Assembly: GCA_964565425.1 (NCBI GenBank)
Contig: CAZMEZ010000004.1
Span: 24,907 to 88,906 of the forward strand
Direction of reading: 5' to 3'
DNA from: an uncultured Planctomycetia bacterium
GTDB taxonomy: Bacteria; Omnitrophota; Gorgyraeia; Tantalellales; Tantalellaceae
DNA length: 64,000 nucleotides
The translations under genes and the position numbers were made by a program. Position 1 is the first letter of the stretch. Every line of letters starts with the position of its first letter. Below are positions 16,381 through 39,662 of the stretch, piece after piece. Under the pieces are notes generated by a model, which made no database searches, was not told the origin of the DNA, and saw nothing but the letters and a program-made list of their open reading frames with translations.

Positions 16381-17054
16381 AGAAGGACGACGGGATGAAA
16401 ACGAATAGCGGAAAGGTCTGTTTCCTTTCTCACGTGATGAGCGAGGGCACATCGCTTTACGGAGGCGATAGATCTATCAGCCTGAGGCGGGAAAGGTCCA
16501 TCCCGCGGGGGGACCATTGCAATACGATGCGCTGGTCTTTCCCCAACCATTCCGGGACCCACGTTGACGCGCCGCTGCATTTCATGGAAACGGGGGCTGC
16601 CGTTCCCGATTTCGGGCCCGGGGACTGGGTGTTCGTCAAAGTTTTCCTGGCCGAGGTATCCGACGCGGAACCCGGCCGGATGATCGGGCGGGAAGACCTC
16701 AAAGCGCTTGCGGATTGCGAGATACTGCTCATAAGGACGGGATTTGAAAAATACCGTTCAGGGAATATTTACTGGCAGGAATCTCCGGGGCTGCGTCCGG
16801 ATCTGGCCGGGCATCTCAAACGGAGCTGTCCGTCTATAAGGGCCGTGGGAATGGATTTTATATCCGTATCAAGCCTTAAGGACCGGGAGACGGGAAGACG
16901 CGCCCACAGGTCTTTCCTGGAGAACGGCATACTGCTTATAGAGGACATGAAGCTTTCGCCGCTTGTCAAAGCGCCGAAAAAGATAGTGGTAGCGCCTCTT
17001 CTGGTCGAAGGCGCGGACGGATCTCCCTGCACGGTGTTCGCTATGGAGGAGTGA
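16377..17054 (+). CDS. Cyclase-family protein (kynurenine-formamidase-like metal hydrolase)
   Basis: HSGTHVDAPLH motif of the cyclase / arylformamidase family. Confidence 0.65.
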   Translation: MKKDDGMKTNSGKVCFLSHVMSEGTSLYGGDRSISLRRERSIPRGDHCNTMRWSFPNHSGTHVDAPLHFMETGAAVPDFGPGDWVFVKVFLAEVSDAEPGRMIGREDLKALADCEILLIRTGFEKYRSGNIYWQESPGLRPDLAGHLKRSCPSIRAVGMDFISVSSLKDRETGRRAHRSFLENGILLIEDMKLSPLVKAPKKIVVAPLLVEGADGSPCTVFAMEE

Positions 17055-17060
17055 AGGGGA

Positions 17061-17714
17061 ATGATGCCAAACACGGATAAATATCGTTATTTCTTTTTCG
17101 ACTTCGACGGGGTCATCGTGGACAGCCTCGGCATAAAAGCGGAGGCGTTCGGCAGCCTTTTCGAGGAGTACGGGCGGGAGGTGGTCGATAAGGTGATCGA
17201 TTACCACCTGACGAACGGCGGCGTATCGCGATACGAAAAGTTCAAATATTATTATACAAACCTGATACACGAGGAGATAACCCCTGAAATAATGGGTGAA
17301 CTGGACAGGCTCTATTCCTCGAAGGTAGTGGAAAAGGTCGTCGCGGCCGCCGAGATAGACGGTGTTGTGGATTTCATACGGCGGCGGAACGACGAAGGGA
17401 AACTGTGTTTCGTGGTTTCAGCCACGCCCCAGGAAGAGATAAGGAGGATAACCCGGCTAAAGGGCATAGACCGGATCTTCAAGGAGGTCGTCGGATCGCC
17501 GAGGAAGAAAAGCGAGAATCTGGGATATATATTGGAGAAGTATTCGATAGAGCGGGGCGAAGCCGTTTTTTTCGGCGACGCGAAGAGTGACTATGAAGCG
17601 GCGCTTGAGAACGGCGTGGATTTTATCGGTGTAGTTGACGAAAAGAACAGGGAATTGGCGCTGATCGACGGAATAACCAGGATAAGGGATTTCCGGCACT
17701 TCGGGGCGCAATAG
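17061..17714 (+). CDS. HAD-superfamily hydrolase (phosphatase)
   Basis: DFDGVIVDS motif I at the N-terminus and GDAKSDYEAA motif IV. Confidence 0.7.
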   Translation: MMPNTDKYRYFFFDFDGVIVDSLGIKAEAFGSLFEEYGREVVDKVIDYHLTNGGVSRYEKFKYYYTNLIHEEITPEIMGELDRLYSSKVVEKVVAAAEIDGVVDFIRRRNDEGKLCFVVSATPQEEIRRITRLKGIDRIFKEVVGSPRKKSENLGYILEKYSIERGEAVFFGDAKSDYEAALENGVDFIGVVDEKNRELALIDGITRIRDFRHFGAQ

Positions 17715-17742: not shown

Positions 17743-18723
17743 ATGCTAAACGGCAGCACAGTACTTGTCACGGGAGGAACGGGTTCTTTCGGCAGGAAAT
17801 TCACGGAGATGGTCTTCGAAAGATACAAGCCGAAAAAACTCATCATATTCAGCAGGGACGAGTTCAAGCAGCACGAGATGTCCAAGACGTTCCCTCCCCA
17901 CGAATACCCCGTACGGTATTTTCTGGGGGATATCCGCGATAAGACCAGGCTTTACAGGGCTTTCGAAGGGGTAGATTACGTAATTCACGCCGCGGCGCTG
18001 AAACAGGTGCCGGCGCTCGAATATAACCCTATCGAAGCGGTAAGGACGAACGTCGCCGGCGCGGACAATATAGTGGACGCGGCCATCGATGTCGGCGTCA
18101 AAAAGGTCGTGGCGCTTTCCACCGATAAGGCCGTGAGCCCCATAAACCTGTACGGGGCGACAAAGCTCGTGGCGGAGAAGATATTCGTCGCGGCCAACGC
18201 TTACGGAGGGGAAAAAACCAAGTTTTCCGTAGTCAGGTACGGGAACGTGGTAGGTTCAAGAGGAAGCGTGATACCTTTTTATCTCGATCTCAAAAAGAAA
18301 GGCATAAATGAATTTCCGGTCACCGATAAAAAGATGACCCGTTTCTGGATAACGCTGGAGGAAGGCGTCGATCTGGTGCTAAAGGCGCTTGAAGAATCCG
18401 TCGGGGGCGAGGTCTTTATCCCGAAGATACCTTCGATGAAGATCGTTGACCTCGCCAGGGCGATAGACCCGGAGTGCGGGATAAAGGTAATAGGCATAAG
18501 ACCCGGGGAAAAGATGCACGAAACGCTTGTATCCGAGGACGAAGCCAGGAACGTCAGGGTATTCGACGGGTTATACGTAATGCTCCCGCAGTTCTTCGAA
18601 AAGGCGGAAGCCCATGAAAAGTACGATTCTTGTCCGCTGGTGCCGGAAGGATTTGTTTACAGGAGCGATAAGAACGACCGGTGGCTTCACGTGGACCAGC
18701 TCCATGAAATGATAAGGATGTGA
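17743..18723 (+). CDS. pseB: UDP-N-acetylglucosamine 4,6-dehydratase (inverting), PseB/CapD-type
   Basis: VLVTGGTGSFG Rossmann motif. The YGATK active site is typical of PseB/FlaA1. Heads a Pse-type operon. Confidence 0.8.
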   Translation: MLNGSTVLVTGGTGSFGRKFTEMVFERYKPKKLIIFSRDEFKQHEMSKTFPPHEYPVRYFLGDIRDKTRLYRAFEGVDYVIHAAALKQVPALEYNPIEAVRTNVAGADNIVDAAIDVGVKKVVALSTDKAVSPINLYGATKLVAEKIFVAANAYGGEKTKFSVVRYGNVVGSRGSVIPFYLDLKKKGINEFPVTDKKMTRFWITLEEGVDLVLKALEESVGGEVFIPKIPSMKIVDLARAIDPECGIKVIGIRPGEKMHETLVSEDEARNVRVFDGLYVMLPQFFEKAEAHEKYDSCPLVPEGFVYRSDKNDRWLHVDQLHEMIRM

Positions 18724-18727
18724 CGTT

Positions 18728-19873
18728 ATGAGGCTTATACCGTACGGCCGGCAGCATATCGACGCGAGCGACATAAAAGAAGTGGCAAGCGCGCTCGGAT
18801 CGGACTGGATAACCCAGGGACCGAGGATAAAAGAGTTCGAGGACGCGCTTTGCGGGTATACCGGGGCCCTGTACGCGGTAGCGGTATCCAACGGGACCGC
18901 GGCGCTGCATATAGCGTGCCTTGCTGCGGGCATAACAAAGGACGACGAGGCAATAACCTCTCCCATGACCTTTGTCGCTTCGGCGAACTGCGTTCTTTAT
19001 TGCGGAGGAAAACCGGTATTTGCCGACGTAAAGGAAAACACGGCGAATATCGATCCGGACCAGATAAAGAAAAAGATCACCGGTAGAACAAAAGCGATCA
19101 TACCGGTGCATTTTGCCGGACATCCCTGTGACATTGAGGAGATAAAAGGGATCGCCGACAAGCACGGTCTCATGATAATAGAGGACGCGGCGCACGCGTT
19201 AGGCGCGGAATACGGTGGCGGCAAAGTGGGATCATGCGAGCATTCCGACATGGCGATATTCAGTTTCCATCCGGTTAAGTCGATAACCACGGGCGAAGGA
19301 GGGGCGGTCCTTACCAACCGGAAGGACCTTTATGAAAAGCTTTTGATGCTGAGAGCCCACGGGATAACAAAGGATAACGGGCGGATGTCCTCCGGCGAGG
19401 GGGCCTGGTATTACGAGCAGCAGCAGCTGGGGTTCAACTACCGTATAACGGATTTCCAGTGCGTGCTCGGCCTGAACCAGCTTAAGAAACTCGAAGAGTT
19501 CGTATCCCGCAGAAGGGAGATAGCCGGCATCTATGCCCGCGGGCTGTCACGGGAAAGCGCTCTCATGCTGCCCGGCGAGGAAGGGCCCGTAAGATCGGCG
19601 TGGCATATTTACTGCGTACGCGTTAAGGACGCCGCAAAAAGAAAGCCCTTGTTCGATCATTTGAGGAAAGCGGGCATAATTCCCCAGGTCCATTATATCC
19701 CGGTGTATTTTCATCCATATTACAAAGGGCTCGGTTACGAAAAAGGCATCTGTCCTAGGGCCGAGGATTTTTACGCGCGGGAAATAAGCATACCCCTTTA
19801 CCCGGCGATGACGGATGAAGACGCGGCATATGTAATAAAGATGATCTCCAAATTCTGCGGGGAGGGAAGATGA
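18728..19873 (+). CDS. pseC: UDP-4-amino-4,6-dideoxy-N-acetyl-beta-L-altrosamine transaminase (DegT family)
   Basis: N-terminal IPYGRQHIDASDI is typical of PseC. Has a PLP lysine region (SFHPVKSITTGEGG). Confidence 0.8.
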   Translation: MRLIPYGRQHIDASDIKEVASALGSDWITQGPRIKEFEDALCGYTGALYAVAVSNGTAALHIACLAAGITKDDEAITSPMTFVASANCVLYCGGKPVFADVKENTANIDPDQIKKKITGRTKAIIPVHFAGHPCDIEEIKGIADKHGLMIIEDAAHALGAEYGGGKVGSCEHSDMAIFSFHPVKSITTGEGGAVLTNRKDLYEKLLMLRAHGITKDNGRMSSGEGAWYYEQQQLGFNYRITDFQCVLGLNQLKKLEEFVSRRREIAGIYARGLSRESALMLPGEEGPVRSAWHIYCVRVKDAAKRKPLFDHLRKAGIIPQVHYIPVYFHPYYKGLGYEKGICPRAEDFYAREISIPLYPAMTDEDAAYVIKMISKFCGEGR

Positions 19874-20613
19874 AGGTCGGGGCGATAATACAGGCGAGAA
19901 CGACTTCGACCAGGCTTCCTCGAAAGGTGCTGAAGGAGTTGCCGCGCGGCAGCGGTATCACGGTCCTGGAACAGGTGATAAGAAGGCTAAAGAGGGCAAA
20001 GAAGCTGGATGCGATAGTAGTCGCCACCACTACGGACCGGGAAGACGACCCCATCGTCGCGATCGCGGAAAAAGAAAAAGTGGACGTTTTCCGCGGCAGC
20101 AGGGACGACGTCCTGTCCCGGTATTATCTGGCGGCGAAGGAGAACGGCCTGGACGCGGTGGTGAGAGTGACGAGCGATTGTCCGTGCATCGATCCGGCCG
20201 TATTGGATATCGTGACCGAAGCGCACGTCAGGCACGGGGTGGATTACACCTCGAACACCTTGACGAGGACATATCCGCGCGGTCTTGACGTGGAAGCGAT
20301 AAGTTTCAGCGCTCTTGAGACGGCGCACGAGAAGGCGGAGCTGAAATCGGACAGGGAACACGTTACCTCTTACATATACAGGACGCGTCCGGATTTTTTC
20401 AGCAAGAGACAGATAACGGCGCCGGAAGGGGATGACGCCTCCGCTATCAGGGCGACTTTGGACACGGAGGAAGATTACGGGCTCCTCTCCGCCGTGTTCG
20501 ATCACCTGTATCCCGAAAATGAATTTTTCGGAGTCAATGAGCTCGTGCGCTTTTTCGATAACAATCCGTGGGCAAAAAAGATAAACGAAAAAATAAACCA
20601 AAAGAAGATATGA
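19870..20613 (+). CDS. CTP_transf_3-family cytidylyltransferase (SpsF/PseF-like)
   Basis: AIIQARTTSTRLPRKVL motif of the acylneuraminate-cytidylyltransferase / SpsF family. A second member of this family is at 28814. Confidence 0.65.
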   Translation: MKVGAIIQARTTSTRLPRKVLKELPRGSGITVLEQVIRRLKRAKKLDAIVVATTTDREDDPIVAIAEKEKVDVFRGSRDDVLSRYYLAAKENGLDAVVRVTSDCPCIDPAVLDIVTEAHVRHGVDYTSNTLTRTYPRGLDVEAISFSALETAHEKAELKSDREHVTSYIYRTRPDFFSKRQITAPEGDDASAIRATLDTEEDYGLLSAVFDHLYPENEFFGVNELVRFFDNNPWAKKINEKINQKKI

Positions 20614-20629
20614 CGGGCAAGGGCGTATC

Positions 20630-21253
20630 GTGAATAAGAGGGTCTCTATAATAGATTACGGGATGGGAAACCTGAAGTCCATAGCGAACGCGCTTACCGC
20701 CGTCGGGGCGGACGTAAAGGTGGCGGTATCCCCGAATGATCTTGGAGCGGCAGCCCGCATCGTGCTTCCGGGAGTTGGGGCTTTCGGCGACGGGATGAGC
20801 AGCCTTAAAGAACGCGGTTGGATGGAGGCACTGAACGAAGAGGTCATGATAAAGAAAAAAACTTTTCTCGGCGTTTGTCTCGGGATGCAGCTCCTGGCGT
20901 CGGCAAGTACGGAGCACGGGGAGCATGAAGGATTCGGGTGGATATCCGGCAGGGTGGACAAGATAAGTTCGGCCGGCGTACGAGTTCCCCATATAGGGTG
21001 GAATGACGTCAGGCTGGTCAAGAGAGAAGGGCTTTACTCGGGGATAGACGATCCACAGGCATTCTATTTCGTTCATAGTTATGTGTTCCGTCCGGATGAT
21101 CCCTCCGTTGTCAGCGGGGTATGTTCCTACGGAACGGATTTTGCGGCCAGCATAGAAAAAGAGAACATATATGCCACGCAGTTTCACCCGGAAAAAAGCC
21201 ATAAGAAGGGGCTGGCGGTATTGAAGAACTTCCTGGAGGCGCGGGGATGCTGA
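20630..21253 (+). CDS. Imidazole glycerol phosphate synthase HisH-like glutamine amidotransferase (polysaccharide-type, WbuY-like)
   Basis: Class-I glutamine-amidotransferase triad (GVCLGMQ ... H/E). Paired with a HisF-like gene inside a sugar locus. Confidence 0.8.
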   Translation: MNKRVSIIDYGMGNLKSIANALTAVGADVKVAVSPNDLGAAARIVLPGVGAFGDGMSSLKERGWMEALNEEVMIKKKTFLGVCLGMQLLASASTEHGEHEGFGWISGRVDKISSAGVRVPHIGWNDVRLVKREGLYSGIDDPQAFYFVHSYVFRPDDPSVVSGVCSYGTDFAASIEKENIYATQFHPEKSHKKGLAVLKNFLEARGC

Positions 21254-22035
21254 AGAAAAGACTTATACCGGTATTGCTCCTGCAGAACGGCCTGTTGGTA
21301 AGGAGCGAGCTTTTCAAGATACACCAGATAATCGGGAACCCGATACACGAGGTGCAGAGGTTCAACGAATGGAACGTGGATGAACTGGTATATCTGGATA
21401 TCACTAAAGACGACAACTATGATCTAAGGAGAAGCGACGGCAAGGTGAAAGGCCTGGGCGACCCTTTAAGCATTCTCGACGCGGTGAGCGATACCTGTTT
21501 TATGCCGCTCACGTGGGGAGGGCGCATCCGCAGGGTCGAGGACATGAGAACGTTCATCAGCCACGGCGCGGATAAAGTGACGATCAATACGGCGGCCGTG
21601 AAGACCCCCGGTCTTATCACGCGGGGAGCCAGGACTTTCGGCAGCCAGGCGATAGTCGTCAGTATAGATGTCCTGCGTCATGCTGGCGGCAAAACGGAGG
21701 TATTCATAGAAGGCGGACGGACTCCAACGGGCAAGAGACCCGAGGGATGGGCCAAGGAAGCGGAAGACCGTGGCGCGGGAGAGATACTCCTGCAGTCGAT
21801 CGACCGTGACGGCACGGGAGAAGGTTATGATCTCGAGCTTATCGAGGCGGTATCTTCGGCCGTTACCATACCCGTGATCGCGTGTAGCGGGGTCGGGGTT
21901 TACGAACATTACCCGCAGGCCGTCAAGGCGGGAGCGTCAGCCGTAGCGGCCGCGAACATATGGCATTTTAAGGAATTGTCCGATAAGGGGGGCAAACGCG
22001 CCCTGGCGCGCGCCCAGGTCGAAATACGCACTTAA
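21247..22035 (+). CDS. HisF-like cyclase subunit (WbuZ-like)
   Basis: TIM-barrel HisA/HisF family. Has the LIPVLLLQNG N-terminus typical of polysaccharide-type HisF paralogues. Confidence 0.8.
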   Translation: MLKKRLIPVLLLQNGLLVRSELFKIHQIIGNPIHEVQRFNEWNVDELVYLDITKDDNYDLRRSDGKVKGLGDPLSILDAVSDTCFMPLTWGGRIRRVEDMRTFISHGADKVTINTAAVKTPGLITRGARTFGSQAIVVSIDVLRHAGGKTEVFIEGGRTPTGKRPEGWAKEAEDRGAGEILLQSIDRDGTGEGYDLELIEAVSSAVTIPVIACSGVGVYEHYPQAVKAGASAVAAANIWHFKELSDKGGKRALARAQVEIRT

Positions 22036-22049
22036 CATAGGAGAAGTAT

Positions 22050-23249
22050 ATGTCGGTCCGGTATTGCAGCAAATGTGTCTATCCGGCTATAGCGGCTACG
22101 CCGCTCACTTTCGACGACGACGGCGTGTGTTCCGGATGCCGGGTTTCCGGTCAAAAGGACACCATCGACTGGGAAAAAAGAGGCAGGATGCTGAAGGATC
22201 TGGCGGACGGGTACAAGACGGGAAGTAACTATGATATCGTCATACCCGTCAGCGGCGGCAAGGACAGTTATTTCCAGGCCCATTATGCGGTGAAAGAACT
22301 GGGCCTTAAACCTCTTCTCGTGACCTATCACGGGAACAATTATCTCCCGGAAGGAGAGTACAACCTTTTCAGGATGAGGGAGGTCTTTGACTGTGACCAC
22401 ATAATTGTGAGGCCGAGTGTTGAAACGCTGGTCAAGATGAACCGCATAGGGTTCAAGCTCCAGGGCGACATGAACTGGCACGCGCATTGTGGCATATTCA
22501 CCGTGCCTATACAGATCGCCGTTAGATACAAAGTGCCGCTGATGATGTGGGGGGAGCACGGGTTCATGGACCTGGGGGGGATGTATTCGCACAATGATTT
22601 CGTGGAGTTCACGGCGAAATTCCGGCTTGAACACGCGCTGAGAGGATACGACTGGTACGATTTTACGGACGAAGGCCTTGAAAAACTGGGCAGGCCCGAG
22701 ATCAAGGAGGGGCTGACCGCGCGGGACCTTTTGTGGGCGCGGTACCCGGGCGACGACGAGATAGACGAGGTAGGGGTGCGCGGTATATACCTCGGTAACT
22801 ACGCGCATTGGGACGCGAACCGCCATTCCCGCATGGTAATGGAAAAATACGGTTGGAAACCGGCACAGAGAGAGTTCGAACGCACCTACAGGAAGATATC
22901 CAACCTTGACGACATGCACGAGAACGGTATCCACGATTATCTCAAATTCGTGAAATTCGGGTATGGCCGGGGCACCGACCATTCGTGCAAGGATATCCGC
23001 GCGGGCATAATGACGCGCGGGCAGGCCGTAGAAATGGTCAGGAAATACGATCACGTCAAGCCCAGGTTCGATCTGGACAGGTGGCTGAAATATGTGGACA
23101 TGACCGAAGAGGAATTCGACCATATCTGCGACACTTTCAGGGACGGACGTGTGTGGCGACAGGAAAAGGGACAATGGGTAAAAGATAACGTCTGGGGGGA
23201 ACCGTCCGCGTACGGACCGGTACACGCGACGGGTTCTTTGGTGAAATGA
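22050..23249 (+). CDS. N-acetyl sugar amidotransferase (WbpG/PseA-like PP-loop ATPase)
   Basis: N-terminal zinc ribbon CSKC..CSGC and PP-loop SGGKDS. This family converts N-acetyl groups to acetamidino groups together with the HisH/HisF paralogues. The antisense ORF 22032-23225 is a shadow. Confidence 0.75.
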   Translation: MSVRYCSKCVYPAIAATPLTFDDDGVCSGCRVSGQKDTIDWEKRGRMLKDLADGYKTGSNYDIVIPVSGGKDSYFQAHYAVKELGLKPLLVTYHGNNYLPEGEYNLFRMREVFDCDHIIVRPSVETLVKMNRIGFKLQGDMNWHAHCGIFTVPIQIAVRYKVPLMMWGEHGFMDLGGMYSHNDFVEFTAKFRLEHALRGYDWYDFTDEGLEKLGRPEIKEGLTARDLLWARYPGDDEIDEVGVRGIYLGNYAHWDANRHSRMVMEKYGWKPAQREFERTYRKISNLDDMHENGIHDYLKFVKFGYGRGTDHSCKDIRAGIMTRGQAVEMVRKYDHVKPRFDLDRWLKYVDMTEEEFDHICDTFRDGRVWRQEKGQWVKDNVWGEPSAYGPVHATGSLVK

Positions 23250-23273
23250 CCATATTAATAAAGGCCGAAAAGT

Positions 23274-24431
23274 ATGGATAAAACACGCAAGTTGTACGAG
23301 AAGGCCAGGAAATTGATGCCGGAGAGAAACAGGTTCCTTTCCGAAGAACCGGAGCTGCGTTTCCCGGACATCTGGCCCGTTTATTACAAAGGGGCCAGGG
23401 GGTGCGAGATAAGGGATCTCGACGACAGGCGATATGTCGATATGAGCTGCATGAACACGGGTTCATGTATCCTGGGGTACTCGGACGAGGATGTCGACGG
23501 CGCCGTGAAGGCCGTTATAGAAAAGGGATCGATGTCGACGCTTAATTGCCCCGAAGAAGTGGAGCTTGCCGAGCTTTTGTGTGGAATACATCCATGGGCC
23601 GACAGGGTCGTTTTCACCGGCGTCGAGAAAGAAGCCGCGCGCATGGCGGCCGACGCGGCAAGGGTAAAGACTGGCAGGGACACCGTCCTTTTCTGCGGTC
23701 GCCGGGACAAAGGTCCCTCCTTCGCGTATAACGATATCGAAGGTTTTCTTGAGGCGGCCGACAAGAACAAAGACAGGATAGCCGCGGTGGTGATGGAACC
23801 CGCGCGGGACCGCATGCCCGTAAAGAATTTCCTCGAGATCATAAGGGAAAGAACGCAGAAAGAGGGTACGGTCCTTATTTTCGACGAGACAGTGTCCGGG
23901 TGGCGTCTTAACCTGGGCGGGGCCCACATGGGGTTCGGCGTAAAACCCGACATGGCGATATTCTCAAAAAGCACGGGTAACGGTTATTCTGTTTCGGCGG
24001 TAATAGGAACCACGGAAGCGATGGACGGTTTTGGGGGAGCCGCTTGTCCGCCGGAAAGGATAGGGGCCGCGGCCGCGATAACGGCCATAAGAAAGATGCG
24101 AAAACATAACGTCGCGGCGCACCTGGTGGAAGCCGGAAAAACGGTCAGGGAGGGATGGAGGAAGGCGGCGGAGAGACAGGGGCTGAAAATAGAGGTAAGG
24201 GGTATTCCGCCTTTAAGCTGGTTTTCATTCTGCTATGACGGCCCCCTTGCGCCGGAATCTCTTTTTGCCCAGTTCATGCTTAAAGAGGGGTTTCTGGCCG
24301 TTAACATGTTCTGCGCTTCGTACGCGCACAAGAAAGAGGACGTGGAAAAGTATTTAAAGGCTTCGGAAGGGTCTTTCGGGGCCATAGCGAGGGCAATAGA
24401 GGAAGGGAACCCGGCTAAATACATGAAGTAG
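23274..24431 (+). CDS. Class-III aminotransferase (glutamate-1-semialdehyde aminomutase-like)
   Basis: PLP-dependent fold type I. GSA-aminomutase-like length with a lysine region (FSKSTGNGYS). Confidence 0.65.
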   Translation: MDKTRKLYEKARKLMPERNRFLSEEPELRFPDIWPVYYKGARGCEIRDLDDRRYVDMSCMNTGSCILGYSDEDVDGAVKAVIEKGSMSTLNCPEEVELAELLCGIHPWADRVVFTGVEKEAARMAADAARVKTGRDTVLFCGRRDKGPSFAYNDIEGFLEAADKNKDRIAAVVMEPARDRMPVKNFLEIIRERTQKEGTVLIFDETVSGWRLNLGGAHMGFGVKPDMAIFSKSTGNGYSVSAVIGTTEAMDGFGGAACPPERIGAAAAITAIRKMRKHNVAAHLVEAGKTVREGWRKAAERQGLKIEVRGIPPLSWFSFCYDGPLAPESLFAQFMLKEGFLAVNMFCASYAHKKEDVEKYLKASEGSFGAIARAIEEGNPAKYMK

Positions 24432-24484
24432 GCGGGGTCCACTGCAGGACAAGGGAGCCGCTGAAGCCGCGGGAAAGAGGCGAT

Positions 24485-25243
24485 ATGCGCGCAGTGAAAA
24501 TAATTTTTCTTGGGACCAACGGATGGTACACGACTGAGACGGGGAATACCACGTGTGTTTTCATGGAAACGAAGGATAACTATATAGTCCTCGACGCGGG
24601 GAACGGCATTTACCGGCTTGACGAGTATGTGAAGAGCGTCGATAAACCGATCTACGTTTTCCTGAGCCATTTCCACCTGGACCATATAAGCGGGCTTCAC
24701 ATCCTGGCCAAGTTCAGATTTCCCCAGGGCATGACCATATGCGGGCACAGGGGAACAAGGGAGATCCTTGATGGTATCATGCGGCAACCGTTCACGGTCC
24801 CGCTCGAAGATATTCCTTTCAAGATCGAGGTAAAGGAAATCGAAGAAGGGGTCGCCTCGGCCTTTCCGTTCCACGTTGAGGCGCGAGAGGTCCCGCATTC
24901 CTCGATGTGCCTGGCCTACAGGTTCGAAGTAGAGGGCAGGATAGTGACGTATTGCACCGACGCGGGGTATTGCCGGGCGGCGGTAGAGTTGGCCCGGGAC
25001 TCGAACGTGCTCATAGCCGAGTGCACGTTGAAGCCCGGCGAGAAGAACGAGAAATGGCCGCATCTTAATCCCGCGGACTCCGCGAGGATCGCGCAAGAAG
25101 CGGGAGCGGAGAAACTCGTGCTCATGCATTTTGACGCCGACAATTACCGGAGCATTTATGACAGGGAAAAAGCCCAGGCCGTGGCGGAGAAGGTTTTTAA
25201 GAACACAACGGCTGCCAGGGACGGAATGGTGGTGGAGCTGTAG
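24485..25243 (+). CDS. MBL-fold metallo-hydrolase
   Basis: HFHLDHISGLH metal-binding motif. Confidence 0.65.
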   Translation: MRAVKIIFLGTNGWYTTETGNTTCVFMETKDNYIVLDAGNGIYRLDEYVKSVDKPIYVFLSHFHLDHISGLHILAKFRFPQGMTICGHRGTREILDGIMRQPFTVPLEDIPFKIEVKEIEEGVASAFPFHVEAREVPHSSMCLAYRFEVEGRIVTYCTDAGYCRAAVELARDSNVLIAECTLKPGEKNEKWPHLNPADSARIAQEAGAEKLVLMHFDADNYRSIYDREKAQAVAEKVFKNTTAARDGMVVEL

Positions 25244-25586
25244 AGAGATCGCATAGCGCAAAGCGCATAGCGGTTCGCGATGTGCGGTTAGCGGGTCGAG
25301 AAAGTAAATAATAAGTGATACGTGATACGCAGGCTAGAGGCACGAGGCTAGAGGCACGAGGCTAGAGGCAAGAGGCAAGAGGCAAGAGGCGAAAGAAAGG
25401 CGTTGATTACGAAGATTAAGACGCAGACGATGATCTTAGATTACGAAGATCTGATCCCCGTAATCTATTTAAATCTTCGTAATCAAATTATATAGTACGC
25501 GTTATCTGTGATCATCTGTTTTAAATCTGTGCTCATCCGTGTTTTAAGGAAAAACGAACGACGAACGGCGAACAACGGACGACGAT
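25244..25586. repeat. Composite intergenic heptamer-repeat element (343 bp)
   Basis: In order: agcgcat-type heptamers; gtgatacgtgatacg; nine ggcNNga heptamers (ggctaga/ggcacga/ggcaaga) at 25332-25394; an inverted pair gattacgaagat ... atcttcgtaatc at 25405-25483; and gtgatcatctgttttaa plus cgaacga heptamers at 25507-25586. Homologous to 47702-47868, 59384-59700 and 61343-61700. Confidence 0.7.
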
Positions 25587-27050
25587 ATGAAAAATAACAT
25601 GCGGGTTTATATAGTTACCGAAGGGGGCGAGGGTATCGGTTACGGACACGTAACGAGGTGCCTCTCGCTTTGCCAGGCTTTTGAAGGGGAGGGCATCTCT
25701 CCGATATTCATAATAAACGGGGATAAAAGCATTAAGAATATCATCGGCGGAAGGGACTGCGTGACGTTCAACTGGCTTAAAGAGGGGGAAAAGCTGCTGA
25801 AGATCATCGATGGTTCGGATATAACGATAATAGATTCCTATAAAGCGAGCCGCGCCATCTACGCGAAAATATCGGAACTGGCGCTTTTACCGGTCTTTCT
25901 GGACGATTACAAGAGAATAGACTATCCGGAAGGGGTCGTGCTGAACGGAGGCATCCACGCCGAAAGCCTTGCGTACCCCAGGAAAAGGGGGAAGACATAT
26001 CTTCTCGGCGCGAAATACGCTCTTTTGAGAAAAGACTACTGGAAGACCTCCGGCAAGAAGATCAGGAAGAGCGTTGAAAAGATACTCGTTACGTTCGGGG
26101 GGAGCGATACGGATAACTTTACCGCCGAGGTTCTTAAAGCGCTGGACGAGGCGTATCCGGAGATATCAAGAACGGCGGTTATAGGAAAGGCGTCCGGTAC
26201 GTCGCCCGTGGCAGGAAGGGCCGCGGGAGGCGGTACGCGGTTCGTTTTTGACGCGGATGCCGCGGAGATGAAGAAGGTCATGATGGAGGCCGATATCGCT
26301 GTCGCCGCCGCCGGACAAACCACATATGAACTTGCGGCGGTAGGTGTGCCCACGGTCGCGGTCTGCGTTGCCCCGAACCAGAAAATGAACCTTGTGAACT
26401 GGATGGAAAAAGGGTTTCGCGGCTGCGCGCTTGCCGGTCGCAGGATCCCGAAGGAGAAGGTCCTCGAAGGCGTGGAGTATTTTCTGCCTTACAAGAATAG
26501 AAGCGAATTTTATAAGAGCACCAGAGATCTTGTTTCCGCCGACGGGGCGCGCAACGCCGTAAAAGAACTGCTTGGCGCGTACGGTTCCGTTAAATTGAGA
26601 GGGGTCAAAAGGGACGATTGCCGTGATCTCTGGATATGGCGAAACCATCCCAGGGCGAGAAAATGGAGTTTTTGCCATGACGCGATAAGTTATCCCGACC
26701 ACGAAAAGTGGTTCGCCAAAAAGCTCGGGGATAGAAGGGCGCGGATATATATCGCTGAAGACATCCGCGGCCGAAAGATCGGGCAGGCGCGTTTTGAGGT
26801 GTTTCCCTCGAGCGCGATGATCAGCGTGAACCTGAACCCCATGTTCTACGGCAGGGGGTTCGGTTCAAAGGTAATAGAGGGCGCGACCCGGACCTTTCTC
26901 GAAGAAAGGCCGCAGGTAAAAGAGATAACGGCCGAGGTAAACGCGGCGAACATAGCGTCGATCAAGGCCTTTAAAAGAGCCGGATACGAGTTCTCGTCAA
27001 AGGAGCGGAAAGCCGGCGAGAACGCCGATATCTTCAAGTACAGGACCTAA
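25587..27050 (+). CDS. Bifunctional PseG-like UDP-2,4-diacetamido-2,4,6-trideoxy-beta-L-altropyranose hydrolase / GNAT N-acetyltransferase (PseH-like) fusion
   Basis: N-terminal GT-B-like PseG domain (GEGIGYGHVTRCLSL). C-terminal GNAT fold (about 26600-27050). Confidence 0.7.
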   Translation: MKNNMRVYIVTEGGEGIGYGHVTRCLSLCQAFEGEGISPIFIINGDKSIKNIIGGRDCVTFNWLKEGEKLLKIIDGSDITIIDSYKASRAIYAKISELALLPVFLDDYKRIDYPEGVVLNGGIHAESLAYPRKRGKTYLLGAKYALLRKDYWKTSGKKIRKSVEKILVTFGGSDTDNFTAEVLKALDEAYPEISRTAVIGKASGTSPVAGRAAGGGTRFVFDADAAEMKKVMMEADIAVAAAGQTTYELAAVGVPTVAVCVAPNQKMNLVNWMEKGFRGCALAGRRIPKEKVLEGVEYFLPYKNRSEFYKSTRDLVSADGARNAVKELLGAYGSVKLRGVKRDDCRDLWIWRNHPRARKWSFCHDAISYPDHEKWFAKKLGDRRARIYIAEDIRGRKIGQARFEVFPSSAMISVNLNPMFYGRGFGSKVIEGATRTFLEERPQVKEITAEVNAANIASIKAFKRAGYEFSSKERKAGENADIFKYRT

Positions 27051-27051
27051 A

Positions 27052-28077
27052 ATGGCGAAGAAGAAAAGATCCAACAGGTGTTTGATGGTAGCGGAGGTGT
27101 CAGCCAACCACGGCCGGAACTTAAGGCAGGCTGTGGCCATGATAAGGAAGGCGAAGGAATGCGGCGCCGACGCGGTAAAGTTCCAGACGTACACTCCGGA
27201 TACGCTTACGATCGATTCGGACAGGAGTTTCTTCAGGGTCAAACACCCCAAATGGAAGGGGCAGACGCTTTACCAGCTTTACGGGAAGGCATATACGCCC
27301 TGGGAATGGTTCGCGAAACTCAAAAAAACGGCGGATTCCGAAGGTATCATGTTCTTCTCGACCGCTTTTGACAGGACGTCGGTCGATCTTCTCGAGAAGC
27401 TCAATGTGCCCGTTCATAAAATAGCTTCGTTCGAGCTTGTCGACCTGCCGCTCATCGAGTACGCGGCAAAGACCGGTAAACCCCTGATCATGTCCACGGG
27501 CATGGCGACGAAGGCGGAGATAAAAGAAGCCGTGGATGTCGCGAGAAAGGCCGGGGCTAAGGATATAACGCTTTTAAAATGCGTGTCGAGTTATCCGGCG
27601 GAACCGCGCGAAATGAATCTCCTGACCCTGCGGGATATGAAGGAGAGTTTCGGCTGCCCGGTCGGCCTTTCGGACCACAGCATGGGGATAGGCGCATCGA
27701 TAGCCGCGGTTGCCCTGGGGGCGACCGTGATAGAGAAGCATTTTACCTTATCAAGGAAGATAAGGACGCCGGACAGCTTCTTCTCGATCGAGCCGGATGA
27801 GCTGGAAAGGCTCATCGTGAACGCGAGAATAGCGGAGAAGGCCGTGGGGAAGGTCCGTTACGGCCTTACCGGGGACGAAAAGAAGAGCAAGGCGTTCAGG
27901 CGGTCGCTTTTCGCGGTCAAGGATATAAAGAAAGGAGAAGTTCTCAACGCCGAGAACGTGAGGTCCGTGAGGCCCGCGAACGGCCTGAGCCCCAAATACG
28001 CGGACGCGGTTTACGGCAAAAAGGCGAAAAAAGGCATCAAAAAAGGCACCCCGCTGGGGTGGGAGCATATATCGTGA
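27052..28077 (+). CDS. pseI: Pseudaminic acid synthase (NeuB family)
   Basis: NeuB TIM-barrel (VIAEVSANHG, KFQTY) with a C-terminal antifreeze-like domain. Confidence 0.8.
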   Translation: MAKKKRSNRCLMVAEVSANHGRNLRQAVAMIRKAKECGADAVKFQTYTPDTLTIDSDRSFFRVKHPKWKGQTLYQLYGKAYTPWEWFAKLKKTADSEGIMFFSTAFDRTSVDLLEKLNVPVHKIASFELVDLPLIEYAAKTGKPLIMSTGMATKAEIKEAVDVARKAGAKDITLLKCVSSYPAEPREMNLLTLRDMKESFGCPVGLSDHSMGIGASIAAVALGATVIEKHFTLSRKIRTPDSFFSIEPDELERLIVNARIAEKAVGKVRYGLTGDEKKSKAFRRSLFAVKDIKKGEVLNAENVRSVRPANGLSPKYADAVYGKKAKKGIKKGTPLGWEHIS

Positions 28078-28817
28078 AGGAACTCATCAGAAATTGCCAG
28101 CATTACGGGTCCCATCATACCTTTCTTTTGAGGGGGCGGGACGGTAACGTGGTCGGGGTCGAGAAAAAGACCTTCAGCGAGACCGGGATCCGGGACCTGG
28201 ACCGTGAGGCGGAAGGACTGGAATGGTACTGCCGCCTGATCGGCAGGGACGCGTCCGAGATGATCGGTTCTTTCGAAAAGGCCGCCGGGTACGGACGGCT
28301 GGAAATAAAATACCACGACGGCGCGGTTATAACGACGCCCGCCAGTCCCGATCTTGTCAAAGGAAAGCTGAGGGCGGCGGTCGAGCATTATCTCGAGGTA
28401 TTCGGCAGGGACTCTTTCAGGTTCTCGCACGGTGATTATTTTCTCGGGAACATAGTCTACACGGGCGACAGGGTCGCCTGGGTGATAGATTGGGAACACT
28501 TCAACGACAAGCTTCCCGCGGGATATGACGCGCTGAATTGCGTAACCCAGGTATTTCTTTCCGCGCACGGGAAGAAAAGGCGGTATTCGAGGGAAAGCGT
28601 TGAATCGGCCCGCGCTCTTATCGCGAAAATATCCGAAAGAGCGGCTTTGCCGGAAGAGGCGATCTCCTCCCCGGCGCTCTGGTGCAGGAACACGGCTGCC
28701 GAACGCAGTGATGTCTGGGGAGGCCAGCACGGCAAACTTCCTCATCTTGATTATCCGCGCGAGACCTGCGCGGAGGTGGACAGGATAATAGGGGTCATGA
28801 ACGGAGGCGGGATATGA
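28059..28817 (+). CDS. APH/choline-kinase-family phosphotransferase
   Basis: Brenner motif HGDYFLGNI and VIDWEH. Overlaps pseI by 19 nt and the next gene by 4 nt. Confidence 0.55.
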   Translation: MGAYIVKELIRNCQHYGSHHTFLLRGRDGNVVGVEKKTFSETGIRDLDREAEGLEWYCRLIGRDASEMIGSFEKAAGYGRLEIKYHDGAVITTPASPDLVKGKLRAAVEHYLEVFGRDSFRFSHGDYFLGNIVYTGDRVAWVIDWEHFNDKLPAGYDALNCVTQVFLSAHGKKRRYSRESVESARALIAKISERAALPEEAISSPALWCRNTAAERSDVWGGQHGKLPHLDYPRETCAEVDRIIGVMNGGGI

Positions 28818-29500
28818 AAAAAGAGATAGTAGCGCTCATACCGGTCAAGGGTTCGTCGGAACGGGTGAAAGCCAAGAACACGAGACCCTTCCACGACACC
28901 AGCCTGTATGAACTGAAGCTCAGGCATATGAAGGAAGTCGGGGGATTCGCGAACGTCATAGTGTCTTCCGAGAGCAAGGATATACTCAGGGCGGCGAAAA
29001 AGACGGGATTTGACACCCACCTCCGTGATCCTAAATATTCCACGAGCACGGTCCCCATGAGCGACGTCTATTCATATATCGCCTCCGAGATAAAGGGGGA
29101 GCATATCGCGTGGGTCAACGTTACTAACCCGCTGGCGGGGCCGGAAGTATATGAAAAAGCCATAGAAAAATATAATTCCATGGGCCCCGGGCATGACTGT
29201 CTTTTGAGCGTTTCGGAGATGAAAGAATACCTTTTCCATGACGGCAGGCCTGTCAATTTCCGTCCCAACCCGTGGCCGAGATCCCAGGACCTCCAGGACG
29301 TGTATGCCATGTCCTTCATAATAAACATCCTCAGGAGAGAGGACATGGTCAGGTGGGGTTCGTGCGTCGGCGAGAAGCCGTATTTCTTCTGCCTGGACAG
29401 GGTTACCTCGAAGGACGTGGATTTTCAGGAGGATTTCGATTTTTGCGAGACGATCTATAAGAAGCGCTGTGAAGCCGTGAAACAGGAGAGTTGCAGGTGA
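28814..29500 (+). CDS. pseF: Acylneuraminate cytidylyltransferase family (CMP-pseudaminic acid synthetase-like)
   Basis: ALIPVKGSSERVKAKN motif of NeuA/PseF (CTP_transf_3). Confidence 0.7.
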   Translation: MKKEIVALIPVKGSSERVKAKNTRPFHDTSLYELKLRHMKEVGGFANVIVSSESKDILRAAKKTGFDTHLRDPKYSTSTVPMSDVYSYIASEIKGEHIAWVNVTNPLAGPEVYEKAIEKYNSMGPGHDCLLSVSEMKEYLFHDGRPVNFRPNPWPRSQDLQDVYAMSFIINILRREDMVRWGSCVGEKPYFFCLDRVTSKDVDFQEDFDFCETIYKKRCEAVKQESCR

Positions 29501-39649: not shown

Positions 39650-39662
39650 GGGGAAAAAGGAT

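Follow-up and report, generated by a model that had tools for sequence, protein, structure and literature searches.

A predicted acetamidino-pseudaminic acid gene cluster within a larger surface-polysaccharide locus of an uncultured bacterium

Which nonulosonic acid (NulO) is made by a gene array that combines pseudaminic acid (Pse) enzymes with HisH-like and HisF-like proteins and an amidotransferase, and does this trio act on that sugar? The question is raised by a stretch of 64,000 nucleotides from an uncultured bacterium, called the window here. The original prediction placed a pathway to a Pse5Ac7Am-type sugar at positions 17743 to 29500. All genes that it named were found at their predicted positions on the plus strand, and the ORFs overlap or nearly abut in one tight array. 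Scores are given in bits against curated NCBIfam cut-offs, with Pfam models used for the accessory genes. The comparison set consists of 80 related loci from many phyla (individual loci carry L numbers), 49 of which have at least 8 kb on both flanks and are termed long-flank loci.

Pse core enzymes and the two cytidylyltransferases

The genes assigned to the Pse steps, and a second cytidylyltransferase, are as follows.

17743-18723, + strand, PseB, inverting UDP-GlcNAc 4,6-dehydratase, step 1 (TIGR03589, 496.6 against 407.75)
18728-19873, + strand, PseC, UDP-4-amino-4,6-dideoxy-AltNAc aminotransferase, step 2 (TIGR03588, 499.8 against 423.5)
19870-20613, + strand, FlmC/SpsF-type cytidylyltransferase, candidate CMP-Pse synthetase, step 6 (Pfam CTP_transf_3, 83.5 bits)
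25587-27050, + strand, PseG-PseH fusion, UDP-sugar hydrolase (step 4) and GNAT N-acetyltransferase (step 3), both domains below cut-off
27052-28077, + strand, PseI, pseudaminic acid synthase, step 5 (TIGR03586, 466 against 340.25)
28814-29500, + strand, NeuA/PseF-like cytidylyltransferase CT3b, CTP_transf_3, module 2 core (PseF model, 61.1 against 205.7)

PseB, PseC and PseI, all predicted to be present, each score above the NCBIfam equivalog cut-off. The E-values of the core enzymes in the profile search, 1e-140 to 1e-150, rule out chance. The predicted PseG-PseH fusion was also recovered, though both domains fall below cut-off: the PseG domain (aa 5-268) scores 143.8 bits against 153.55, and the PseH domain (aa 339-482) 48.4 bits against 93.1. 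The fusion carries a GYGH21VTR motif. The nearest relatives, locus L083 and a JGI contig, have the same fusion at 467-473 aa. The N7 acyl group, which the PseH-like GNAT domain would supply, is most likely an acetyl.

The legionaminic pathway was considered and rejected, with LegB at 60 bits against 475 and LegC at 249 against 420. The neuraminic pathway was rejected likewise, with NeuB_NnaB at 316.5 bits against 399.65. The Pse models pass where these Leg and Neu models stay far below cut-off. By these models, the locus is a predicted pseudaminic acid pathway, neither legionaminic nor neuraminic.

The CMP-Pse synthetase is most likely the 19870 product and not the 28814 product, as judged by homology and synteny. 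The 19870 product is 39% identical to C. crescentus FlmC over 230 aa (E 3e-48) and matches PDB 6OEW at 136 bits; sources name its close homologues SpsF. FlmC provides the cytidylyltransferase step that completes a six-enzyme route to CMP-Pse rebuilt in E. coli (PMC7591256). Homologues of the 19870 type occur in 43 of the 80 related clusters, where they are the sole cytidylyltransferase, and across the 80 loci the FlmC type (43) and the PseF type (6) are mutually exclusive. The 28814 product is unrelated to FlmC (E 0.25), and BLASTP found no similarity between the 28814 and 19870 products.

The original prediction had taken the "PseF-like" 28814 product as the synthetase of the pathway. That assignment would leave the SpsF-like 19870 protein to act otherwise, for example as a glycosyltransferase or in activating another substrate. 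The 28814 product alone aligns full-length with the PseF equivalog model (aa 6-216 on model positions 1-221) and matches NeuA structures at E 1e-7 to 1e-5. NCBI names 19870 homologues "glycosyltransferase family protein", and a B. subtilis spsF mutant goes on producing Leg without transferring it, which fits either a synthetase or a transferase (PMC7439481). The PseF score is, however, far under its cut-off, and the genes that accompany 28814 are a different set. Its type was absent from the related clusters at the first screen (1e-8), except for a 25%-identical match in L038. Homologues in L081, L083 and L084 are 69-74% identical and always lie directly upstream of a homologue of U501 (described below), and this identity holds even beside the non-Pse-type NulO synthase of L081 and L084. 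The predicted assignment is thus unlikely and was probably inverted.

The amidotransferase trio and its surroundings

Three genes between pseC/flmC and pseG-pseH/pseI form the trio.

20630-21253, + strand, HisH-type glutaminase subunit, presumed ammonia supplier (TIGR01855, 242.1 against 105.4)
21247-22035, + strand, HisF paralogue (WbuZ/AglZ type), presumed to channel ammonia (all HisF-type models below cut-off)
22050-23249, + strand, N-acetyl sugar amidotransferase (NASAT; WbuX/WbpG/PseA family), putatively acetamidino-forming (TIGR03573, 317.7 against 203.2)

The 22050 protein contains a PP-loop, S68GGKDS, and a four-cysteine zinc motif, C6xxC9...G25xC27xxC30. A PP-loop together with CxxC...GxCxxC is the motif set of the NASAT family (PMC10607449). 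The protein matches PDB 8WEX (LpNASAT) at 122.9 bits (E 1.4e-34). The HisH protein has the active-site motifs GVC83LGMQ and FHPEKS. The HisF paralogue passes none of its models, with 248.7 bits against 299.7 for WbuZ, 222.4 for AglZ/HisF2, and 220.8 against 294.55 for HisF. Of the 80 related loci, 70 have HisH next to the amidotransferase, and 76 have a homologue of the HisF paralogue there, 51-78% identical. In the long-flank loci both partners stand beside it in 48 of 49. Models, motifs and synteny therefore agree with the predicted WbpG/PseA-type PP-loop amidotransferase and its HisH- and HisF-like partners.

It is very improbable that HisH and HisF are an ordinary imidazole glycerol phosphate synthase of histidine biosynthesis, present in the cluster by chance. 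HisH does clear the cut-off of its equivalog model, and its HisF-like partner does reach 220.8 bits on the HisF model, but the latter score is under the cut-off and the WbuZ score is higher. Position 11 of the HisF paralogue, which we take to correspond to the catalytic Asp11 of the T. maritima cyclase in HisF numbering, is a Leu. No further his genes are nearby, and the pair accompanies the amidotransferase across many phyla.

The substrate of the trio is suggested by its neighbors. In the long-flank loci, whose amidotransferases are 61-83% identical to the one in the window, NulO genes lie beside the trio in 45 of 49; no NulO gene lies within 10 kb of it in the other four. A NeuB-family synthase is present in 42 of the 49, and PseI at 44% identity or more in 30. 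WbpB/WbpD-like genes (GFO-like or hexapeptide-acetyltransferase) occur in only two.

Another reading is that the trio acts on a hexosamine-type sugar (2,3-diacetamido or FucNAc-type) made elsewhere in the locus, its place among the Pse genes being incidental. Characterised WbpG of Pseudomonas and WbuX of E. coli O145 act on hexosamine derivatives (PMC10607449). A second amino-sugar set lies at 52.5-57.4 kb in the window, and its N-acetyl groups are in principle a possible substrate.

52588, second DegT aminotransferase
55873, UDP-GlcNAc 3-dehydrogenase-like GFO (170.8 against 450)
56872, hexapeptide acetyltransferase, NeuD/PglB-type

These candidate hexosamine genes are, however, some 30 kb away, past a phosphonate block, whereas the trio keeps the same place between the Pse genes in the nearest relatives as in the window. 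Together with the counts of 45 and two, this makes the hexosamine reading improbable. The gene order and these counts support the trio as a predicted module of NulO clusters and not of a hexosamine pathway. Acetamidino-pseudaminic acid is the best reading, because the Leg assignments fail and the trio keeps company with NulO genes and not with WbpB/WbpD-like ones.

Of the Pse5Ac7Am sugar originally proposed, the acetamidino-Pse part is supported by the occurrence of the trio in NulO clusters, and the C7 position is not. C. jejuni Pse carries the Am group at C7 and Tannerella Pse5Am7Gra carries it at C5 (PMC5378307), and modification of N5 or of N7 cannot be read from sequence.

Accessory genes and module 2

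Two accessory genes and a spacer separate the trio from the PseG-PseH gene.

23274-24431, + strand, class-III (GSA-aminomutase-like) aminotransferase (Pfam Aminotran_3, 86.7 bits; PRK06209, 189 against 486)
24485-25243, + strand, MBL-fold (RNase Z/PhnP-like) hydrolase (Pfam Lactamase_B_2, 79 bits; HFHLDH motif)
25244-25586, repeat-rich spacer with heptamer tandem arrays, at the downstream edge of the insertion

The aminotransferase and the hydrolase are an insertion. Both are absent from the two closest syntenic relatives, where the gap between the amidotransferase and PseG-PseH is 6 bp (L083) and 2 bp (JGI contig). The aminotransferase shows the PLP-lysine context PDMAIFSKSTGNG and has homologues in L016, L064, L069 and the Legionella Sg6/12 cluster. 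A search for the MBL hydrolase across the 80 related loci gave no homologue, even with E relaxed to 1e-3.

The functional unit extends beyond 17743-29500. The array is headed by a regulator, as is the JGI contig, and the core cluster is flanked by a separate conserved module, module 2, which extends upstream to 15475 and downstream to 37942.

15076-15104, + strand, sigma-70-type promoter-like site TTGACA-17-TATAAT, just 5' of the first gene (a 12/12 consensus match only)
15113-15478, + strand, MarR-family EPS-associated regulator, heading the array (TIGR04176, 98 against 88)
15475-16380, + strand, D-2-hydroxyacid dehydrogenase, PGDH/glyoxylate reductase-like, module 2 (Pfam 2-Hacid_dh_C, 169.7 bits)
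16377-17054, + strand, putative cyclase/arylformamidase-like metal hydrolase, possible N-deacylase, variable member of module 2 (PF04199, 65.4 bits)
17061-17714, + strand, HAD-family phosphatase, module 2 (Pfam HAD_2, 62.8 bits)
28059-28817, + strand, APH/choline-kinase-type small-molecule kinase, with which module 2 begins in this lineage (Pfam APH, 23.2 bits, exactly at cut-off)
29491-30996, + strand, U501, uncharacterised GT-B-fold protein, presumed nucleotide-activated-donor transferase (AlphaFold model, pLDDT 92)
30996-31943, + strand, SAM methyltransferase (Methyltransf_23), module 2 (65-68% identical in L083 and L084)
31961-33394, + strand, B12-binding radical SAM enzyme, module 2 (CPFGCNFC motif; 66% identical in L084)
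33413-34351, + strand, NAD-dependent epimerase/dehydratase (SDR), module 2 (Pfam Epimerase, 154 bits; 74% identical in L081, 64% in L084)
34362-36185, + strand, fused TMD-NBD ABC exporter, MsbA/PglK/HepA-like, module 2 (six TM-like segments; 64% identical in L081, 54% in L084)
36200-37942, + strand, U580, uncharacterised GT-B-fold protein (LIC12162-like), weakly polysialyltransferase-like (model pLDDT 91.5, GT-B matches)

Homologues of the 2-hydroxyacid dehydrogenase adjoin an SDR and an ABC exporter in L084/L085 (51% identity) and L086, and also head the JGI contig. The HAD gene is co-located with the dehydrogenase in the JGI contig, L084 and L086. A homologue of 16377 lies between the dehydrogenase and HAD genes in L084/L085 and is absent from the JGI contig. 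The kinase contains the Brenner motif HGDYFLGN and DWE. Its homologues lie directly upstream of that of CT3b in L081 (57% identical) and L083 (44%); L084 has a WbqC-family gene in this place.

U501 has no match in Pfam or NCBIfam, and its homologues, of which the search gave only 46, are all unnamed. A Foldseek search with its model returned GT-B enzymes (2-epimerases, WaaA, PseG, TarL and MurG). U580 has matches in 174 of 1.84 billion representatives. PF07388 was matched by 5 of 60 U580 relatives (best E 0.0016), and the L084 homologue has a weak match to PF27859 LIC12162. On their models, U501 and U580 appear to be novel GT-B proteins.

The kinase and the second cytidylyltransferase (28059-29500) are outside the Pse pathway proper and belong to module 2. 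The downstream module probably acts on a CMP-activated acid sugar, either tailoring or transferring it. The original prediction had read the aminotransferase, hydrolase, kinase and second cytidylyltransferase as further derivatisation of the NulO. All four are present, but they do not form one tailoring set: two are inserted and two are part of module 2.

Proposed pathway and closest known systems

A complete route from UDP-GlcNAc to CMP-Pse, with a trio that turns one NulO N-acetyl group into an acetamidino group, is a likely reading of the sequence. In the first five steps, which the profiles and the sequence support, PseB would dehydrate and invert UDP-GlcNAc, and PseC would aminate it at C4. 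The GNAT half of the fusion would acetylate the C4 amine and the PseG half would remove UDP. PseI would condense the resulting sugar with PEP, forming Pse5Ac7Ac, which the 19870 FlmC/SpsF-type enzyme may convert to CMP-Pse. HisH would hydrolyse glutamine, and the HisF paralogue, having lost the cyclase Asp11 position, may pass the ammonia on. The 22050 PP-loop enzyme would then activate an acetamido carbonyl with ATP and add ammonia, so that the Pse would bear one acetamidino group. With Campylobacter as the model, amidination would probably take place at the CMP-sugar or free-sugar stage.

The locus for flagellin glycosylation in C. jejuni (PseB/C/H/G/I/F and PseA, Cj1316c) has the same Pse core enzymes, and its PseA, which gives acetamidino-Pse, is an amidotransferase of the same NASAT family. 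Its hisH/hisF paralogues presumably adjoin pseA (Cj1316c). Unlike C. jejuni, the window has PseG and PseH fused and an FlmC/SpsF-type cytidylyltransferase in place of a canonical PseF. Its surroundings are those of an EPS locus, where an ABC exporter and a priming transferase occur and no Maf or flagellins are nearby.

The Caulobacter Pse set shares the FlmC-type cytidylyltransferase and NeuB/PseI (49.5% identity) with the window, and its six enzymes are enough for E. coli to carry out Pse-dependent glycosylation (PMC7591256). The Caulobacter genes lie at several separate loci and function in the glycosylation of flagellin, and an amidotransferase trio is not involved.

The L. pneumophila Sg6/12 O-antigen cluster lists PseG, a GSA-aminomutase-like class-III aminotransferase, an SpsF-like cytidylyltransferase, HisF, HisH, an "LPS biosynthesis protein" (NASAT), DegT, CapD and NeuB (PMC3694923). 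This list is a precedent for the 23274 aminotransferase in an amidino-NulO cluster; an MBL hydrolase is not in it. Non-Sg1 L. pneumophila has a 5-acetamidino-7-acetamido NulO homopolymer, according to work cited within PMC3694923. The Legionella sugar is a legionaminic-type isomer and not Pse. LpNASAT shares the PP-loop and Zn-cysteine motif with the 22050 protein, at a distant level of similarity.

Pse5Am7Gra of T. forsythia is a surface-glycan Pse with an acetimidoyl group, in which Am can sit on N5; no pseA homologue was found in that organism (PMC5378307), so its genetic basis may differ from the one here.

ElaABC of A. baumannii and V. vulnificus combines the CTP-transferase ElaB with two NAD(P)-dependent oxidoreductases for C8 epimerisation of CMP-NulO (PMC13656337). 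The 28814 protein, the 33413 SDR and the 15475 dehydrogenase are, as a set, formally similar. The oxidoreductases are Gfo/Idh/MocA and SDR in ElaABC, and 2-Hacid_dh and extended SDR here. Module 2 has in addition the kinase, HAD phosphatase, B12 radical SAM enzyme, methyltransferase, two GT-B proteins and ABC exporter.

The sugar would be destined for a secreted or surface polysaccharide and not for flagellin. This is suggested by the EPS-type MarR regulator, the GT-B proteins, the ABC exporter and a polyprenyl-phosphate priming transferase in the locus (EPS_sugtrans, 423.8 against 295.55), and by the lack of any Maf or flagellin Pfam match among the genes searched in the window. The arrangement of Pse genes with an amidotransferase trio is real but common among environmental bacteria. 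The Pse cluster sits within a larger, poorly understood surface-polysaccharide locus, of which module 2 and the phosphonate genes are more novel parts than the Pse cluster itself.

Pseudaminic acid genes and the amidotransferase trio

All genes that the original prediction had named were found on the plus strand, at the coordinates it gave. They form one array in which the ORFs overlap or almost abut. The array opens with a regulator gene at 15113, and its genes as far as 28814 include the following (a single coordinate is the gene start; bit scores are followed by model cut-offs).

15113, +, EPS-type MarR regulator, first gene of the array (98 bits; 88)
17743-18723, +, PseB (NCBIfam TIGR03589, 496.6 bits; 407.75)
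18728-19873, +, PseC (TIGR03588, 499.8 bits; 423.5)
19870, +, protein with a CTP_transf_3 domain, FlmC/SpsF-type
20630-21253, +, HisH (242.1 bits; 105.4), glutaminase motifs retained
21247-22035, +, HisF paralogue (best model WbuZ, 248.7 bits, under the cut-off of 299.7)
22050-23249, +, N-acetyl sugar amidotransferase (NASAT: WbuX/WbpG/PseA; TIGR03573, 317.7 bits; 203.2)
23274, +, class-III aminotransferase, PLP-lysine context
24485, +, MBL-fold hydrolase, HFHLDH motif
25587-27050, +, PseG-PseH fusion, 487 aa (PseG and PseH models)
27052-28077, +, PseI (TIGR03586, 466 bits; 340.25)
28059, +, APH-type kinase, HGDYFLGN and DWE motifs
28814, +, protein with a CTP_transf_3 domain, NeuA/PseF-like

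PseB, PseC, and PseI all score above the cut-offs of their models. The fusion protein has a PseG domain at residues 5-268 that scores 143.8 bits, just under the cut-off of 153.55, with positions 1-276 of the 280-position model aligned and a GxGH motif at the N-terminus. Its PseH GNAT domain (residues 339-482) scores 48.4 bits, under the cut-off of 93.1. The fusion is also kept in the two nearest syntenic relatives, an Omnitrophota MAG locus (L083) and a JGI contig.

The original prediction named a legionaminic acid pathway as a case against it. The LegB and LegC models give 60.1 bits (cut-off 475) and 248.7 bits (cut-off 420), and PseI gives 316.5 bits against the NeuB_NnaB model (cut-off 399.65). 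These scores, far under the cut-offs, rule out a legionaminic or neuraminic pathway. PseI is 49.5% identical to Caulobacter crescentus NeuB, which acts as a pseudaminic acid synthase. The failure of the Leg and Neu models together with this identity establishes the pathway as Pse-type.

The protein encoded at 22050 contains the PP-loop S68GGKDS, which has the form SGGxDS, and the zinc motif C6SKC9...G25VC27SGC30. The NASAT family is defined by a PP-loop and the pattern CxxC-Xn-[GN]xCxxC in the paper describing the L. pneumophila structure (PMC10607449). The predicted protein carries every testable defining feature of the family. It also matches the L. pneumophila NASAT structure 8WEX with an E-value of 1.4e-34.

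The HisF paralogue scores 222.4 bits against AglZ/HisF2 and 220.8 bits against HisF, both under the respective cut-offs. Its alignment with T. maritima HisF covers the full length, and it has a leucine at the position of the catalytic Asp11 (T. maritima numbering). This leucine fits an ammonia-delivering partner, not a histidine-pathway cyclase. The HisH/HisF pair lies beside the amidotransferase in 70-76 of 80 related loci, as expected of a dedicated partner. A housekeeping HisHF for histidine biosynthesis is rejected on the basis of the Asp11Leu difference and synteny.

Related loci, CMP activation, and accessory genes

The related loci (L001-L080) were collected by scanning genomes at one per species and have amidotransferases 61-83% identical to that of the window. 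They span cyanobacteria, Omnitrophota, Myxococcota, Verrucomicrobiota, Acidobacteriota, Planctomycetota, CPR bacteria, and DPANN archaea. All window proteins were placed on the 80 loci by tblastn, and the counts that follow are from the 49 whose flanks reach at least 8 kb on each side. HisH and HisF are beside the amidotransferase in 48 of these. A NeuB-family synthase is present in 42, and PseI at 44% identity or more in 30.

A second reading is that the trio of HisH, HisF paralogue, and amidotransferase serves a hexosamine pathway instead of nonulosonic acid (NulO) synthesis. The window does have a second amino-sugar set approximately 30 kb downstream, composed of DegT, a UDP-GlcNAc 3-dehydrogenase-like GFO, and a NeuD/PglB-type acetyltransferase. 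However, at least one NulO gene lies within 10 kb of the trio in 45 of the 49 loci, while a GFO-like gene and a hexapeptide acetyltransferase are each found in only two. A hexosamine role, which the original prediction had listed as a refuting outcome, is therefore highly improbable. Synteny is the one line of evidence that supports a NulO as the putative substrate of the amidotransferase, that is, a PseA-like specificity.

Across distant phyla and both prokaryotic domains, the amidotransferase (61-83%) and HisF (41-78%) remain similar to those of the window in the 80 loci, and the flanking Pse enzymes are merely 25-60% identical. Such conservation suggests that these two proteins are strongly constrained, that the trio is frequently transferred, or both. 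In one Magasanikbacteria locus (L069, 10001-13098), a pair of amidotransferase paralogues, at 63% and 30% identity to that of the window, lies alongside two HisF paralogues. These could amidinate both N-acyl groups, or two sugars.

The CMP-Pse step had been assigned to the PseF-like protein at 28814, with the protein at 19870 as an additional enzyme. The evidence favours the reverse. Against the canonical PseF model (TIGR03584), 28814 scores 61.1 bits (cut-off 205.7) and 19870 has no match. Of the 80 loci, 43 have a homologue of the 19870 type at 33-50% identity, and close homologues are named "SpsF" in the source annotations. The first screen of the 80 loci with 28814 (E-value 1e-8) returned a sole match, a 25%-identical relative in L038. 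A relaxed search located weak 28814-like genes, of the canonical PseF/NeuA type, in six loci, none of which has the 19870 type. This pattern of absence makes the two types alternatives for the same step.

C. crescentus flmC was translated from the synthetic operon in an eLife supplement and compared with both proteins. FlmC is 39% identical to the 19870 product over 230 residues (E-value 3e-48); its similarity to the 28814 product is not significant (E-value 0.25). According to the same paper, FlmC lacks homology to PseF, yet supplies the last enzyme of a set of six that makes up a functional Pse pathway in E. coli (PMC7591256). B. subtilis SpsF has been assigned to the equivalent CMP-Leg step (PMC7439481). 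The CMP-Pse step is thus most likely filled by the FlmC-type analogue predicted at 19870. The FlmC/SpsF type is overlooked by the curated PseF model, and the likely assignment is corrected here.

The class-III aminotransferase, the MBL hydrolase, and a 343-bp spacer of heptamer repeats sit between the amidotransferase and pseG-pseH. In L083 and the JGI contig, the gap between the latter two genes is 6 and 2 bp, respectively, and both accessory genes are absent. L083 has the same gene order, with PseB, amidotransferase, and PseI at 74%, 80%, and 61% identity; the amidotransferase of the JGI contig is 87% identical. Either the pair was inserted in the window, or each of the two relatives has lost it. 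The class-III aminotransferase recurs in amidino-NulO clusters, beside the FlmC-type gene in L016 and L064, and also in L069. The MBL hydrolase has a counterpart in none of the 80 loci. A literature search on the role of class-III aminotransferases in NulO clusters yielded nothing beyond the annotation table of the L. pneumophila Sg6/12 O-antigen cluster, which includes a GSA-aminomutase-like protein (PMC3694923). A paper on the Vibrionaceae nab genes contains nothing on this enzyme class.

The spacer is one of several intergenic heptanucleotide tandem arrays, located at 7185-7242, 9830-9871, 25250-25585, 59526-59776, 61506-61593, and 61970-62089. Examples are AGGCAAG/AGGCTAG (8.6 copies), CCTTTAT (9.6 copies), and ACGAACG (6.6 copies). 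Such arrays fill many gaps between genes and appear to be a feature of the organism's whole genome.

Limits of the unit and the second conserved module

The additional genes had been proposed as one group for further derivatisation of the sugar. The genes are present, but they do not form a single group; they divide into the insertion pair of aminotransferase and hydrolase and a second module. As judged from gene order in other loci, the kinase and 28814 open this separately conserved module. The gene order in L081 runs kinase (57% identity), 28814-type protein (74%), U501 (51%), B12 radical SAM protein, SDR (74%), ABC exporter (64%), and U580 (41%), where U501 (29491-30996) and U580 (36200-37942) are uncharacterised proteins of the window. 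The L081 module adjoins a different NulO gene set, with a synthase merely 37% identical to PseI. L084, an Omnitrophota MAG locus, and L085 have a WbqC-family gene in place of the kinase. Genes for a 2-hydroxyacid dehydrogenase, a cyclase, and a HAD protein, which in the window lie upstream of pseB (15475-17714), are found between the SDR and the ABC exporter in these two loci. In L086, the module core is beside pyruvate-aldolase-type genes in place of NeuB. The conservation of the module in L081, L084/L085, and L086 extends the unit from 15113 to at least 37942; the originally proposed span of 17743-29500 holds the genes described but not the limits.

U501 and U580, the latter LIC12162-like, represent two rare unannotated families that flank the ABC exporter. 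They recur with a NeuA-like cytidylyltransferase and an SDR beside varied acid-sugar synthesis genes, and in L084 and L086 their context also includes a 2-hydroxyacid dehydrogenase. A metagenome scan with the kinase returned two loci only. U501 has 46 detectable homologues, all unnamed, and U580 matches 174 of 1.84 billion cluster representatives. The AlphaFold models of U501 (pLDDT 92.2) and U580 (pLDDT 91.5) are both GT-B folds with large helical insertions. Fold searches with these models returned generic GT-B enzymes only: polysialyltransferase 5WCN is merely at rank 38 for U580, and WaaA and TarL are among many matches for U501. The polysialyltransferase Pfam family is matched weakly by five of 60 U580 relatives (best E-value 0.0016). 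In the U580-family consensus, His349 (in an FQHGG stretch) and Lys440 (in a KxHP stretch) are both invariant. PDB sequence searches with the kinase, U501, and U580, as single sequences or profiles, gave nothing usable.

ElaABC (PMC13656337), a C8-epimerase module in which a second CTP-transferase and NAD(P) oxidoreductases act on CMP-NulO, offers a precedent. The window, L084, and L086 each combine a second cytidylyltransferase with an SDR and a 2-hydroxyacid dehydrogenase, while only the cytidylyltransferase and SDR were detected in L081. The enzyme families of the window differ from ElaA and ElaC. By analogy, a CMP-activated acid sugar may be remodelled by 28814 together with the SDR and 2-hydroxyacid dehydrogenase, ahead of the steps of the GT-B proteins and the exporter.

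Phosphonate genes, destination of the sugar, and significance

Directly after the Pse and second-module array lies a phosphonate ("phosphonyl tailoring") block at 37943-47701, which contains the following.

Within 37943-47701: PEP mutase fused to a C-terminal NTP_transf_3 domain, EDKRFPKVNS motif
Within 37943-47701: B12 radical SAM protein, Sden_1168 P-methyltransferase-like (236 bits, under the cut-off)
Within 37943-47701: phosphonopyruvate decarboxylase (476 bits; cut-off 312)
Within 37943-47701: PsrA-like Fe-ADH, another B12 radical SAM enzyme, and an NTP transferase
45709-46653, +, CDP-alcohol phosphatidyltransferase (Pfam CDP-OH_P_transf)
46577-47701, +, methyltransferase (Pfam match)

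Judged by its predicted proteins, the block amounts to a set of genes of the Fom1/Fom2/FomC/Fom3 kind placed within a glycan locus. The longest ORF over its end, of 397 residues (46496-47689, minus strand), is spurious; it is Pro/Arg-rich and antisense to the two plus-strand genes with Pfam matches.

Homologues of PepM, Fe-ADH, and phosphonopyruvate decarboxylase are present in two DPANN archaeal loci (L070, 572-4103; L076, 1617-5147), approximately 4 kb from HisH-HisF-amidotransferase-NulO genes. Phosphonate and amidino-NulO genes are therefore found together beyond the lineage of the window as well. In the library searched, no paper brings PEP mutase and phosphonate together with nonulosonic acid.

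The polysaccharide locus contains five genes for B12-binding radical SAM enzymes (31961-33394, 39663-41213, 43510-45000, 49756-51228, and 51245-52591). Each protein carries the CxxxCxxC motif, and identities between them are only 22-30%. The set suggests that sugars or phosphonates undergo several C- or P-methylations or rearrangements.

The array opens with the EPS-type MarR gene, and farther downstream it is followed by genes for glycosyltransferases, a polytopic membrane protein, and an EPS polyprenyl glycosylphosphotransferase (423.8 bits; cut-off 295.55). Among the window proteins scanned, none has a flagellin or Maf-type (MptE-like) domain, and flagellin glycosylation is rejected on the lack of Maf and flagellin genes in the window. 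The acceptor is most likely a surface or secreted polysaccharide.

A perfect match to TTGACA-17-TATAAT precedes the MarR gene and is a consensus match only. An Rfam scan of the window gave no RNA family. The sigma-54 promoter search found no site before the Pse array. Its sole perfect match, TGGCACGGTTGTTGC at 10252-10266, is upstream of a transglutaminase-like gene and rpoN. A sigma-54 activator nearby resembles the PEP-CTERM-box response regulator (426.8 bits; cut-off 502.6). The gene spans around the site include 8434-9807 and 10972-12336. Between rpoN and the MarR gene are genes for a PurF-like class-II glutamine amidotransferase (188 bits; cut-off 350) and an NHL-repeat protein (12424-13926).

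The original prediction wrote the product as Pse5Ac7Am. An acetamidino-Pse is the likely product; placement at N7 is one of two possibilities (N5 or N7), between which the sequence does not discriminate. The Am group is at C7 in C. jejuni Pse and at C5 in Tannerella Pse5Am7Gra (PMC5378307). Elsewhere in the literature, the C. jejuni sugar is given as Pse5Am7Ac (PMC3068675).

Three known systems resemble the window. The core would work in the same way as the Campylobacter Pse/PseA system, and hisH and hisF presumably adjoin the amidotransferase gene in C. jejuni, although a paper on the C. jejuni maf genes gave no confirmation of this. The cytidylyltransferase is of the Caulobacter (FlmC) type. 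The Legionella Sg6/12 cluster is similar in gene content, being annotated with PseG, the GSA-aminomutase-like protein, a cytidylyltransferase, HisF, HisH, NASAT, DegT, CapD, and NeuB (PMC3694923).

The second module and the phosphonate genes might together yield a remodelled, phosphonylated amidino-NulO glycan, a reading we regard as unlikely. In it, the kinase and 28814 (28059-29500) would start an undescribed system of sugar-acid tailoring, transfer, and export. The other parts would be U501, U580, a methyltransferase, the B12 radical SAM protein, the SDR, the ABC exporter, the 2-hydroxyacid dehydrogenase, the cyclase-type hydrolase, and the HAD phosphatase. Acetamidino-pseudaminic acid would be re-activated and, at the CMP level, remodelled in an ElaABC-like manner, with epimerisation or C-methylation as examples. 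The system would then polymerise or cap the glycan. A hydroxyalkylphosphonate, CMP-activated and possibly methylated on C or P, would come from the neighbouring Fom1/Fom2/FomC/Fom3-like genes and be esterified to the glycan in addition.

Campylobacter and Legionella are among the pathogens in which acetamidino-nonulosonic acids influence charge, immune recognition, and phage binding. The window and the 80 loci show that the Pse-plus-amidotransferase cassette is widespread and strikingly conserved, which enlarges a known theme and is no new theme by itself. With the true unit delimited, the adjoining conserved module and its tie to phosphonate biosynthesis are worth experimental attention. If the proposed pathway is true, a phosphonylated, C-methylated amidino-nonulosonic acid polymer would be a glycan class so far undescribed.
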